Shown here piece after piece: positions 20,233-23,389 of a stretch of DNA of 34,434 nt. Each line of letters opens with the position of its first letter. Positions within the stretch are counted from its first letter, which is position 1. The position numbers and the translations under genes are program-made. The stretch is taken from assembly GCF_003334385.1 (NCBI RefSeq), contig NZ_QOWN01000046.1; one strand, given 5' to 3'. Source of the stretch: Escherichia coli (GTDB lineage Bacteria; Pseudomonadota; Gammaproteobacteria; Enterobacterales; Enterobacteriaceae). The notes beneath the pieces are model-generated. The model did not search any database. It worked only from the letters and a program-made list of their open reading frames with translations, and was not told the DNA's origin.

Positions 20233-20502
20233 ATGGCACAGGTTAATATGAGTTTAAGAATCGACGCTGAACTGAAGGATGCTTTTATGGCCGCTGCAAA
20301 AAGCATGGACCGTAATGGCTCTCAGTTAATTCGGGATTTTATGCGCCAGACCGTTGAACAGCAGCATAATACCTGGTTCCGTGACCAGGTTGCGGCAGGA
20401 CGTCAGCAACTCGAGCGCGGCGATGTGCTTCCCCATGACATGGTCGAATCCTCCGCTACTGCATGGCGGGATGAAATGAGCAGGAAGGTTGCCGGTAAAT
20501 GA
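20233..20502 (+). CDS. Type II antitoxin (RelB/ParD-like)
   Basis: 89 aa, 4-bp ATGA overlap with the downstream toxin-like ORF. Confidence 0.65.
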   Translation: MAQVNMSLRIDAELKDAFMAAAKSMDRNGSQLIRDFMRQTVEQQHNTWFRDQVAAGRQQLERGDVLPHDMVESSATAWRDEMSRKVAGK

Positions 20503-20780
20503 TGGAGATATTCTGGACCATGCTGGCCAGCCAGGACAGGAAGCGCATTCGTGAGTACATTGCGGAGCAGAACCTGATGGCCGCCATTGAACTGGACGAA
20601 CGGATTGGTTATTCAGCCAGCAGCCTGGCCGGGCAGCCGTATAAAGGTCGCAACGGTCGTGTGGAAGGAACCCGGGAACTGGTTATTCACCCGCATTTTG
20701 TTCTGGTTTATGAGGTCGACAGCCAGTGGGGAAAAGTGTATATCCTGCGCGTGTTGCATACTGCACAGAAGTGGCCATAG
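20499..20780 (+). CDS. Type II toxin, RelE/ParE superfamily
   Basis: 93 aa; C-terminal motif ...VIHPHFVLVYEVD...VYILRVLHTAQ is typical of ParE/RelE toxins; start overlaps the antitoxin stop. Confidence 0.7.
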   Translation: MMEIFWTMLASQDRKRIREYIAEQNLMAAIELDERIGYSASSLAGQPYKGRNGRVEGTRELVIHPHFVLVYEVDSQWGKVYILRVLHTAQKWP

Positions 20781-20819
20781 AGGGGCTGTCCGGATATAAG
20801 GAAAGGAGATGCAATAACC

Positions 20820-21668
20820 ATGAATAATGATGAGCTGGTCACCAGACGTGCGCAGGCGATTGCCGAAGACAGGTGTTTCTCGAAAGGACGTTTGCGCGAT
20901 GAATTCAGAATGAAACCAGCCCCCGGTGCTGAGCCGGTTAAGTGGTATAAAAACACTTATGGTGGCAGGTTCGCTGTATACCGAATTGCAGATTGTGTTC
21001 CGATGCGTGAGAAACGCCCTCTGACGAGTAAACAACAGCTGGCTGGCCAGCGGCTTTCCGTTTTATCCCGACTAAACAGCACCAGTGGCCGGATGGCACG
21101 GCAGGTATATGACTGGCTGAGTCTGGCACCACTCTTTCTGGATACTGAAACGACAGGACTGGATAATACCGCGGAAGCCCTGGAAATCGGCCTGACCGAT
21201 GCGGCCGGTCAGGTGGTATTTGAAACCAGGCTGAAGCCCACGGTCGCCATCGGGGCGCAGGCTGCCGCCGTGCATGGTATCAGTGAGCAGGCTCTCTGCG
21301 GCGCACCATCATGGACAGATGTGGCGCGTCAACTGCGGCATGCAATCGGGGACCGACCAGTAATTATCTTTAATGCCCGGTTCGACATCCGCATTCTGAA
21401 ACAGACTGCTACCGCACATAGCGATCCGGCTGGCTGGCTGGAAGAACTGACGGTATATTGTGCGATGGAACTGGCTGCAGGATATTATGGGGCCACCAAC
21501 CGCTATGGCACGATTTCACTGGCCTGTGCTGCCAGCCAGGCCGGACTGACCTGGGAAGGGCAGGCACATTCAGCGATCGCTGACGCACGGATGACGGCAG
21601 GGGTGGTAAACGCTATTGCTGCATATCATCTGGAACTGCTGCAGGAACAGGCACGGCTGGAAATCTGA
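20820..21668 (+). CDS. DnaQ-like (DEDDh) 3'-5' exonuclease domain protein
   Basis: 282 aa; FLDTETTGLD (Exo I motif) and HSAIADA (Exo III-like motif) in the C-terminal half; GGAG ribosome-binding site upstream. Confidence 0.7.
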   Translation: MNNDELVTRRAQAIAEDRCFSKGRLRDEFRMKPAPGAEPVKWYKNTYGGRFAVYRIADCVPMREKRPLTSKQQLAGQRLSVLSRLNSTSGRMARQVYDWLSLAPLFLDTETTGLDNTAEALEIGLTDAAGQVVFETRLKPTVAIGAQAAAVHGISEQALCGAPSWTDVARQLRHAIGDRPVIIFNARFDIRILKQTATAHSDPAGWLEELTVYCAMELAAGYYGATNRYGTISLACAASQAGLTWEGQAHSAIADARMTAGVVNAIAAYHLELLQEQARLEI

Positions 21669-21739
21669 CCGCCTGGCCTGTATACCGCAATCATTTACGT
21701 TATCCGGACGTAAATCCGCCGCTTGTTGCTGTCAGCATG

Positions 21740-21771
21740 TTAATGCTAATGTATGCATACATTAGCATTAA
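21740..21771. promoter_or_regulatory. Perfect 32-bp palindrome TTAATGCTAATGTATGCATACATTAGCATTAA, candidate operator or hairpin just upstream of the 160-aa ORF
   Basis: Perfect dyad symmetry; ends about 13 bp before the ORF start; a related copy lies at 22291-22333. Confidence 0.5.
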
Positions 21772-21784
21772 TGAGGGATGATAT

Positions 21785-22267
21785 GTGAGAGACAAAACCA
21801 GGGAGGCCATGCGGCTTTTTTTAGGCGGCAGGTGCTACACGGCTGAAAAACTTGAAAAGGATTATCTGGCTGAAGTGGCTAATTACAGTAACGACCGCTG
21901 GGAAGCACCGCAACGTGCCGCACGCCTGGCTGCCAGCGTAAAGCGTTACAAGACATCAGAAATGCTGCGCTTTATTTTTGCTACCATTGCCTATGATCCC
22001 GATCCAGATTTAACCCCGCTGACTGTGAGACGTTTGTGCAAGGCATTGTTCGGCAGAACCGGAAGCCAGTGGCTGGTTGTTGAAGTTTTTGGGGAGAAGG
22101 GGCGTCAGCACCGCAGCGCGGACAGCAATCCGGAGATGGTGGAAAAAATGGCTGCCAGATATCGTCATGCCGCTGAACTACACTGGTCCGCAACGCTGGC
22201 AGAAATTGAACGGGTAAAGCGGCTTTATCAGATGAAAATTAAGAAATCCAAAAAAGAAGTGGGTTGA
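21785..22267 (+). CDS. Hypothetical protein (160 aa), flanked by related palindromes
   Basis: Open frame with GTG or downstream ATG start; no family recognised. Confidence 0.45.
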   Translation: MRDKTREAMRLFLGGRCYTAEKLEKDYLAEVANYSNDRWEAPQRAARLAASVKRYKTSEMLRFIFATIAYDPDPDLTPLTVRRLCKALFGRTGSQWLVVEVFGEKGRQHRSADSNPEMVEKMAARYRHAAELHWSATLAEIERVKRLYQMKIKKSKKEVG

Positions 22268-22290
22268 CTGCCATTGTTATTCTCCTCCTT

Positions 22291-22333
22291 CATCATTAAT
22301 ACTAATGTATGCATACATTATGCATTAATGATG
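22291..22333. promoter_or_regulatory. Imperfect palindrome sharing the core TAATGTATGCATACATTA with the 21740 site
   Basis: CATCATTAATACTAATGTATGCATACATTATGCATTAATGATG lies just after the stop of the 160-aa ORF. Confidence 0.45.
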
Positions 22334-22378
22334 GTGCGTTAAAGGTACAATAATTTCTAATATCCAAACTGATCTCAT

Positions 22379-22660
22379 ACACGCTCGTTAGCGGCCCTGA
22401 CGGCCCGCTAACGCCGACTTCGGGTAAACCCTCGTCGGGACCACTCCGACCGCGCACAGAGGCTCTATCATGGCTGAAAGCGGGTATGGTCTGGCAGGGC
22501 TGGGGATGGGTAAGGTGAAATCTATCAATCAGTACCGGCTTACGCCGGGCTTCGGCGGTTTTACTCCGGTATCACATGTAACCACATCGTGCCGCCTTAC
22601 ATGCCGCTGGCGCGGCATAAGCATATGTTGGTGGCTGTGTCTGAAAGGTTATATACTCTG
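22379..22660 (+). repeat. Repeat copy B (about 250 bp), carrying an 86-aa ORF (22470-22730) whose first 40 or so codons are shared with copy A
   Basis: Direct repeat of 19917-20195; starts with a perfect 9-bp-stem hairpin CGTTAGCGG-N10-CCGCTAACG. Confidence 0.6.
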
Positions 22661-22836
22661 CATAAAACCTGACAACACGCAGATTGCCAGGCAAATGAGC
22701 ATTATGCATCCGGTTATCGCCTGCCTGTGAAACAATATCACCGGGGCGAATATCGATACTCTGACTCGTTATACCCATGTGTGTGGCATCAAAAAACCTG
22801 CAATTGCCCTTTATTGAATGAAAGGGGGAGTCAATT

Positions 22837-23100
22837 ATGAATAGCACCACACATTACGAAAACGCCAATTTCCTGCGCGAGCTGGCCGAAAGCCTGCCTC
22901 GTATTTTTCCAGAAGGCAGTACAGACAAGTCTGCACTATTGCAACGCCTCGCTAATGAAGAACTGGCTCGGGCGGAATACGACGAACAGATCCGAGCGAA
23001 AGTTGCCGCTGCTCGCGCCGATAAGCGGCCGGGAATGAGTTCCGTGCAACTGCGCCAGCAACTACAGGGACGTTATCAGGAATTGCGCAATGAGTTATGA
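22837..23100 (+). CDS. Type II antitoxin (putative)
   Basis: 87 aa; 11-bp overlap with the downstream RelE/ParE-like ORF. Confidence 0.55.
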   Translation: MNSTTHYENANFLRELAESLPRIFPEGSTDKSALLQRLANEELARAEYDEQIRAKVAAARADKRPGMSSVQLRQQLQGRYQELRNEL

Positions 23101-23389
23101 AATAGAATGGCGACCAGGTGCGATTGAGGATATAACGGCGTTGTTTGAATATCTGGCCGAGAATGCATCTCTTTGGGATGCAAGGAACGTGACAGAGCGT
23201 CTGATCACTGCAACCGATCGTCTGGCAGATTACCCCAGGCTGTATGAAACAGATGAACGCTATGGCGAAGGGGTTCGCCGTATTAGCTTACTTGGGCAGC
23301 ATGTACTTTATGAAGTGAATGATAAGGCCCGTCGTGTCAATATCCTGGCGGTTGTAGGCCAGCGTCAGAATCCCCGATTCATTCTTTGA
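23090..23389 (+). CDS. Type II toxin, RelE/ParE superfamily
   Basis: 99 aa; RelE/ParE-like size and C-terminal motif (...LLGQHVLYEVNDKARRVNILAVVGQRQN). Confidence 0.65.
   Translation: MSYEIEWRPGAIEDITALFEYLAENASLWDARNVTERLITATDRLADYPRLYETDERYGEGVRRISLLGQHVLYEVNDKARRVNILAVVGQRQNPRFIL

Follow-up and report, generated by a model that had tools for sequence, protein, structure and literature searches.

Two ParE-type toxin-antitoxin cassettes and a predicted YacC exonuclease behind the replication origin of an I-complex plasmid of Escherichia coli

Several described systems resemble the locus considered here, which occupies positions 20233-23389 of a 34,434-nt stretch of Escherichia coli DNA (contig NZ_QOWN01000046.1 of assembly GCF_003334385.1; the whole stretch is called the window below) and encodes two toxin-antitoxin (TA) pairs, a DnaQ-like exonuclease, YacC, and a 160-aa protein, YadA. 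The YacAB system is carried by IncI1, IncFII and pINV plasmids directly behind repA and the origin, and the PaaA2-ParE2 system of E. coli O157:H7 has three components, encoded by paaR-paaA-parE. ParE toxins generally target gyrase. ParE2 of O157 has been published as not inhibiting this enzyme (PMC10886550). In the replicon described for pEC958, the origin lies between repA1 and repA4, the repA4 region contains ter sites, and sequencing of transposon insertion sites (TraDIS) indicated that repA4 is needed for the stable maintenance or inheritance of the plasmid (PMC4398462). TA genes have been reported past repA4, namely pemIK (also kis-kid or parD) on pEC958 (PMC4398462) and stbDE on pEntH10407 (PMC2762410). 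On the side of the exonuclease, Pol III epsilon (DnaQ), ExoX and RNase T share with YacC the DEDDh motifs and the fold.

We consider it reasonably probable, overall, that the locus is a maintenance segment that follows the origin of an IncFII-family/I-complex replicon and is made up of two replicon-linked TA cassettes and the YacC backbone exonuclease (Table 1). The locus as such is already known, as it belongs to the usual backbone of resistance and virulence plasmids of the IncF and I-complex groups, with its proteins present in RefSeq under these names; yacC and yadA are the backbone gene names used downstream of yacAB in the R64/ColIb-P9 annotation. The whole window belongs to an I-complex conjugative plasmid, and its bases 1-19000 correspond to the pil, shufflon and tra regions of such plasmids (IncB/O/K/Z-type) with 96-99% identity. 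Upstream of repA, the PK-repZ control element was identified at 18291-18441 (168 bits, Rfam). Given that a DnaA box and a Ter-like core are found downstream of repA, the TA/exonuclease segment directly follows the plasmid replication origin; the Ter-like site is taken to be one by comparison with the Ter consensus. At permissive thresholds, an Rfam scan of the segment returned replicon control elements (PK-repZ, CopA-like) together with a spurious mir-155 match on a palindrome, and no non-coding RNA beyond those control elements.

Table 1. Features of the replicon and of the segment that follows it (positions in the window)
Feature	Positions	Strand	Description
repA	18454-19326	+	ORF; IncFII-family replication initiator of the I-complex replicon; near-identical plasmids annotate 'incFII family plasmid replication initiator RepA'
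DnaA box	19502-19510		downstream of repA
Ter-like replication terminus site	19857-19879	+	ATTATGAATGTTGTAACTACATT; downstream of oriR; core GTTGTAAC at 19866
Repeat copy 1	19916-20208	+	'repA4 region'; GC hairpin at start, putative yacA promoter at end
yacA	20233-20502	+	antitoxin, 89 aa; RelB/DinJ-type ribbon-helix-helix N-terminus; RefSeq YacA 86/89
yacB	20499-20780	+	toxin, 93 aa; ParE-like; RefSeq YacB 91/92
yacC	20820-21668	+	predicted 3'-5' exonuclease, 282 aa; basic family-specific N-terminal domain (1-100) and DEDDh DnaQ-like domain (105-265)
Perfect 32-bp palindrome	21740-21771	.	TTAATGCTAATGTATGCATACATTAGCATTAA; directly upstream of yadA
yadA	21785-22267	+	160 aa, pI 9.8; conserved plasmid protein
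Imperfect palindrome copy	22286-22333	.	just past yadA
Repeat copy 2	22378-22664	+	another repA4-region tail, lacking repA and ori
Pseudogene remnant	22683-22817	+	3' end of HigA-type helix-turn-helix antitoxin; in-frame stop; also a pseudogene in the RefSeq annotation
Pair-2 antitoxin	22837-23100	+	87 aa; PaaA2-like C-terminal toxin-binding segment; pRHBSTW-00317_2 protein 87/87
Pair-2 toxin	23090-23389	+	99 aa; ParE family; 99/99 with pRHBSTW-00317_2 protein annotated RelE/ParE family toxin
Repeat copy 3, partial	23538-23577	+	GC hairpin only; downstream of second toxin; absent from the first-pass annotation

Each TA pair is preceded by a copy of a direct repeat of about 290 nt, as a first-pass annotation of the stretch had reported. 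Copies 1 and 2 share a 206-nt core that is 95% identical (BLAST, 90.6% over 254 aligned positions), far above chance, and a 40-nt GC-rich hairpin, TACACGCTCGTAAGCGGCCCTGACGGCCCGCTAACGCG, recurs at three module boundaries (19916-19955, 22378-22417 and 23538-23577). In plasmids linearised at repA, copy 1 is placed ~1455-1746 nt past the repA start in thousands of cases, and window positions 19303-20222 are 86% identical to the stretch of R100 between repA and tir-pemIK. Based on this constant position after repA, the R100 homology, the nearby Ter-like core and the published description of the region (PMC4398462), the repeat is identified as the 'repA4' tail conserved in IncFII-type replicons. 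Other identities were considered for it. A single-strand promoter of the Frpo/ssi kind was rejected, as folds of the single-stranded DNA of both strands give several short hairpins (z-scores -1.4 and -2.3) and no long hairpin, and a sensitive blastn search of 50,697 phage records, made to look for a primase site of the phage G4 type, had no relevant match. A primase 'G site' is located downstream of oriR in R1 and R100, and the repeat may yet contain such a site. As a separate observation on the replicon, an I-complex-type control element (PK-repZ) is here combined with an origin-distal part shared with the IncFII plasmid R100, so that the two plasmid groups have one replicon architecture in common (18291-20222).

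Directly after the repA4 tail, at least five TA cassettes alternate among plasmids: yacAB, pemIK, stbDE, a higBA-like cassette and the second pair of the window (pair 2). In R100 it is pemIK (tir-pemIK) that follows the tail, and on the IncFIC plasmid pRHBSTW-00317_2 pair 2 comes directly after repA-ori-repeat. The pemIK cassette of R100, R1 and pEC958 is alike in occupying the same slot directly past the repA4 tail, but differs in its toxin, a PemK/MazF endoribonuclease rather than the ParE-like toxins of the window. Downstream of yadA, the window continues with another repA4 tail and the cassette belonging to it, and therefore stacks two cassettes in tandem, the first being yacA-yacB-yacC-yadA and the second consisting of the decayed remains of a higA gene, then a PaaA2-like antitoxin and a toxin of the ParE family. 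Pairwise mapping places the joint accordingly: homology to an IncK2/Z plasmid spans 19300-22344 and ends past yadA, and homology to pRHBSTW-00317_2 begins precisely at the hairpin (22378), with window 22378-23700 corresponding to its positions 1457-2791 (98%). No record with contiguous yacAB, yacC, yadA and pair 2 was found among the 72,556 plasmids of PLSDB and 5,426 complete E. coli genomes. Relatives carry the left or the right part alone, the right one being truncated by insertion sequence (IS) elements of the IS66 or IS3 type, and some IncF plasmids also have the order exonuclease-yadA-repeat-pair 2, with yacAB removed by IS elements. As the full stretch from yacAB to pair 2 occurs in none of these records, the window represents either the intact ancestor of those IncF plasmids or a recombinant formed via the shared yacC-yadA segment. 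A slot in which TA cassettes alternate after repA4 bears on the competition between incompatible plasmids and on plasmid typing.

At the family level, profile and structure matches support both pairs as type II TA systems of the RelE/ParE superfamily, given that each has a toxin matching a ParE profile and a small, translationally coupled antitoxin gene directly upstream of it. The overlapping stop and start codons pointed out in the first-pass annotation measure 4 nt (ATGA) between yacA and yacB and 11 nt between the frames of pair 2, and the two pairs do bracket the exonuclease and the 160-aa gene, as had been described there. That annotation had called the toxins RelE/ParE-type; both match PF05016 ParE_toxin (4.7e-17 for YacB, 9e-13 for the pair-2 toxin), and the assignment can be narrowed. 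Because the solved structures matched by the two toxins are all ParE (5cw7, 5czf, 5ceg and 3kxe), with no RelE chain at E <= 1 in the PDB, both are classed by homology as ParE-like. Between the two toxins the identity is 33%, and between the two antitoxins no pairwise similarity is detectable, so the pairs would be too diverged for cross-neutralisation.

Pair 1 is the named YacAB system. The YacAB loci of IncI1, IncFII and pINV plasmids have the identical genes in the same order and in the same position past repA and the origin, and nothing substantive differs in the window; for the two genes that follow, the RefSeq copies agree at 277 of 282 residues in the exonuclease and at 155 in YadA (160 versus 157 aa). 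YacB scores above the cut-off of TIGR02385 (31.8 versus 27.9 bits), and its nearest solved relative is ParE2 of E. coli O157 (PDB 5cw7, 3.5e-8, full-length alignment). In YacA, residues 1-44 match TIGR02384 RelB_DinJ with 1.1e-5, which is under the curated cut-off. At the end of the repeat, upstream of yacA, a promoter-like TGGTGA-17 nt-TATACT was read by eye and was not listed by the automatic scan; a 6-3-6 palindrome, ATATAC-TGC-GTATAT, overlaps the -10 of this putative promoter and may serve as the operator for YacA.

Pair 2 is conserved in ~209 to 341 plasmids. Its toxin has a weak match to ParE1 of Caulobacter (PDB 3kxe, 0.041), and residues 45-86 of its antitoxin have marginal matches to PaaA2 (0.0038 to PDB 3zbe; 0.0028 to PF21217 PaaA2), in addition to a match to NF050103 that is under the cut-off (2.2e-4). 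Profile and structure comparisons recovered no recognisable DNA-binding domain in this antitoxin. The pseudogene upstream of it was identified by translation against the intact gene of another IncFII/FIC plasmid (L012); in the same place, this plasmid and a further IncFII/FIC plasmid (L013) have intact higB-like and helix-turn-helix (HTH) genes, whose nearest PDB relatives are HigB and HigA of 6af3. The sequence at 22683-22817 is thus the leftover of a third, higBA-like TA cassette. As a PaaR-type regulator the remnant was ruled out, since the sequence comes from the 3' end of a HigA-type antitoxin gene and the HigB-like partner is still found in other plasmids. A three-component PaaR-PaaA-ParE system has a dedicated HTH regulator upstream, and the HTH gene upstream of pair 2 is a truncated pseudogene interrupted by an in-frame stop. 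Compared with PaaA2-ParE2 of O157:H7, the likeness consists of the full-length alignment of YacB to ParE2 and the PaaA2 motif at the C-terminus of the pair-2 antitoxin; the differences are that the window has no PaaR-type regulator, that YacA has its own ribbon-helix-helix domain and that sequence identity is low.

Between the two pairs, YacC is predicted to be a catalytically intact 3'-5' exonuclease of the DnaQ fold. Residues 106-262 match PF00929 RNase_T (2e-14) and residues 1-100 form an extension, in agreement with the first-pass annotation, which had described a DEDDh exonuclease of this length with an N-terminal extension. The features of the DEDDh superfamily are all found, that is, the Exo I (DxE), Exo II (D) and Exo III (Hx4D) motifs and the RNase T/DnaQ fold; the five residues D108, E110, D189, H250 and D255 are present, and their conservation is at least 90% among 40 aligned homologues, the most distant of which have ~30% identity. 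In the AlphaFold2 model (predicted local distance difference test, pLDDT, 96.6), the catalytic domain is closest to Pol III epsilon (2gui; TM 0.81 normalised to the target, Foldseek 1.6e-8). The N-terminal domain is basic (pI 10.3 versus 4.9 for the catalytic domain) and has conserved residues L25, P33, C59 and Q72, and at least 31 full-length representatives at 50% clustering carry it together with the DEDDh domain. When the model of this domain was compared with AFDB50, all 44 significant matches (E <= 0.001) appeared to be of the same family, and those with descriptive names were all exonuclease, epsilon-like, YacC or Ycg4D. As the gap between yacB and yacC is 39 nt and has no terminator-like site, yacC is probably co-transcribed with yacAB; it has its own GGAG Shine-Dalgarno sequence.

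The first-pass annotation had considered the exonuclease the less expected component of the locus. This view does not hold, as yacC is a common syntenic backbone gene, near-complete in 654 of the 5,426 complete E. coli genomes (~12%), nearly always on plasmids, and the contiguous block of yacAB and exonuclease occurs in 602 genomes; many plasmids annotate the order repA-repeat-yacA-yacB-exonuclease-hypothetical. Of the description that the same annotation had set against its own reading, a common syntenic plasmid gene of established housekeeping function, the syntenic half applies. The functional half does not, since a search of the literature for yacC/Ycg4D function and for transposon screens of I-complex/IncI1 plasmids found no functional data. 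The family is well conserved and, in the contexts sampled, restricted to mobile elements.

The neighbourhoods of eight distant relatives of YacC (38-66% identity) were sampled, one of them on a contig too short to show neighbours, and the other seven are all located in mobile-element backbone. On a 270-kb Salmonella plasmid, the gene forms a kfrA-exonuclease operon next to parDE, ccdAB and parAB; a second relative is found with parA and kfrA-exonuclease, and a third lies among small unknown ORFs with kfrA ~5 kb off. Others have RepL genes, or parAB and csrA, as neighbours. One relative, with a resolvase and Tra genes nearby, follows a large ArdC-N/Toprim protein, and another, 49% identical to YacC, belongs to an integrative-element cluster of ArdB (Antirestrict), ArdC, a DNA methyltransferase and HigBA.

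Since both pairs sit in the maintenance region of the plasmid, an addiction module is the natural reading that we infer for each of them. An unstable antitoxin would restrain each ParE-type toxin, and loss of the plasmid, or its displacement by an incompatible replicon, would leave the cells poisoned by the toxin; with their tight linkage to the replicon, the cassettes might act in plasmid retention and in plasmid-plasmid competition. Several points weigh against this picture. On the Shigella plasmid pINV, yacAB is reported to be inactive through a frameshift (PMC9455713, PMC7354431), and TraDIS of an IncB/O/K/Z plasmid that may or may not carry yacAB found only the replicon and parAB to be essential (PMC10286972). 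The regulation of pair 2 is puzzling, with an antitoxin that has no recognisable DNA-binding domain and a former HTH neighbour that is now a pseudogene, and the case for co-transcription of yacABC consists of the spacing and the missing terminator-like site. One or both pairs could be non-functional relics, or serve chiefly in phage defence rather than plasmid addiction, as the frameshift on pINV, the decay of the neighbouring higBA to a pseudogene and the absence of any antitoxin among the genes flagged essential in the I-complex TraDIS would suggest. We regard this as unlikely, considering that all four ORFs are intact, yacB included, unlike its frameshifted pINV copy, and near-identical to widely conserved RefSeq proteins, that the start/stop overlaps and ribosome-binding sites are kept, and that pair 2 is conserved across the plasmids counted above. 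Moreover, PADLOC gave no match for the five proteins of 20233-23389 other than YacC, and thus no defence family for any of the four TA proteins. The repeats, for their part, might form the ends of a mobile cassette that site-specific recombination at the GC hairpin has moved, instead of being left over from homologous exchange between the tails of replicons. The presence of the hairpin at three module boundaries (19916, 22378 and 23538) and the beginning of the IncFIC homology exactly at it would fit such a cassette, but the segment has no recombinase gene, copy 1 simply continues the replicon in all plasmids examined, and 206 nt at 95% are ample for RecA-dependent exchange, so we hold this origin of the repeats to be quite improbable.

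For YacC, our best guess is that the enzyme, transcribed most likely from the YacA-controlled promoter and probably recruited to DNA through its basic N-terminal domain, would trim 3' single-stranded ends on intermediates of plasmid replication, segregation or establishment, and would thus serve a backbone function in DNA metabolism and not be a dedicated anti-restriction or defence gene. Anti-restriction, establishment or defence had been proposed in the first-pass annotation, and YacC could indeed be an establishment or anti-defence factor that degrades DNA ends or a nucleic-acid signal on entry into the host, so that restriction, CRISPR or other defence cannot act on the plasmid. The relative beside ArdB, ArdC, the methyltransferase and HigBA, the one that follows the ArdC-N/Toprim protein, and the exclusive occurrence of the family on mobile elements in the sampled contexts all point in this direction. 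On the other hand, yacC adjoins the replicon, here and in 602 E. coli genomes, and the usual I-complex layout puts the replicon tens of kb from the transfer origin. Furthermore, no Frpo-like long hairpin precedes the gene, Pfam returned exonuclease and RNase H-like families alone and no anti-restriction family such as ArdA, ArdB/KlcA or ArdC, and 6 of the 8 relatives have replication, partition or uninformative neighbours, with 2 of the 8 adjoining anti-restriction genes. In PADLOC, YacC matches only a generic DEDDh domain model (1.1e-28) and, at the domain level, the candidate PDC-S48 (1.3e-21, 160 of 411 positions). A role in anti-restriction is a live reading, less likely than the backbone one, and as a whole the anti-defence proposal appears rather unlikely to us. 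Replacement of the proofreading subunit is a further alternative, in which YacC would be a plasmid-borne stand-in for epsilon that associates with Pol III of the host and raises or alters replication fidelity. Its nearest relatives in fold and sequence are Pol III epsilon and the exonuclease domain of PolC, and its gene adjoins the origin. In epsilon, the C-terminal tail binds the alpha subunit and the clamp. YacC ends at residue 282, 27 residues past D255, and so is without this alpha-binding tail and the clamp-binding motif; it differs from epsilon in having an added, unrelated basic N-terminal domain instead, and its score to the DnaQ equivalog is 55.5 bits where the cut-off is 222.7, so YacC is not epsilon proper. 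We consider such a substitution very unlikely. A more speculative reading can also be given, which we put forward with little confidence: YacC-type exonucleases might be an unrecognised establishment or anti-defence class, or might process breaks made by the adjacent ParE-type toxins, and, separately, the repA4 tail might be a recombination landing pad for swapping and stacking TA cassettes in IncFII-type replicons.

The remaining gene of the segment, yadA, has 181 homologues across Enterobacterales plasmids, down to ~53% identity among the matches listed, and some sources name them YadA. No family match was found for it in Pfam, NCBIfam, PHROG or PADLOC, and no homologue has a Pfam domain. 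The two palindrome copies that bracket the gene are the only ones in the window, where chance would give 0 matches, and they could act as operators or terminators or else as sites of recombination.

Downstream of the segment, a minus-strand block of ORFs with 28-30% GC (27305-32612) lies between IS3-family transposase ORFs (26169-27185, 33213-33902). Its products are an Lnt-like C-N hydrolase, an ABC exporter ATPase of the lactococcin-972 type (under the curated cut-off), three proteins without a family and a 122-aa protein. No PLSDB plasmid covers the block in megablast, the best coverage of 23300-34434 being 27% and due to the IS and acyltransferase parts alone; the block may be foreign cargo. 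Closer to pair 2, homology to plasmids that have a 'bacteriocin immunity protein' gene after this pair stops at ~23806, about 60 nt into the place of that gene (23747-23806). An ORF of 255 aa on the minus strand (23614-24381), with a weak phage-repressor-like HTH match, overlaps this break, and a 20-bp perfect inverted repeat (24295-24340) is located at its start.

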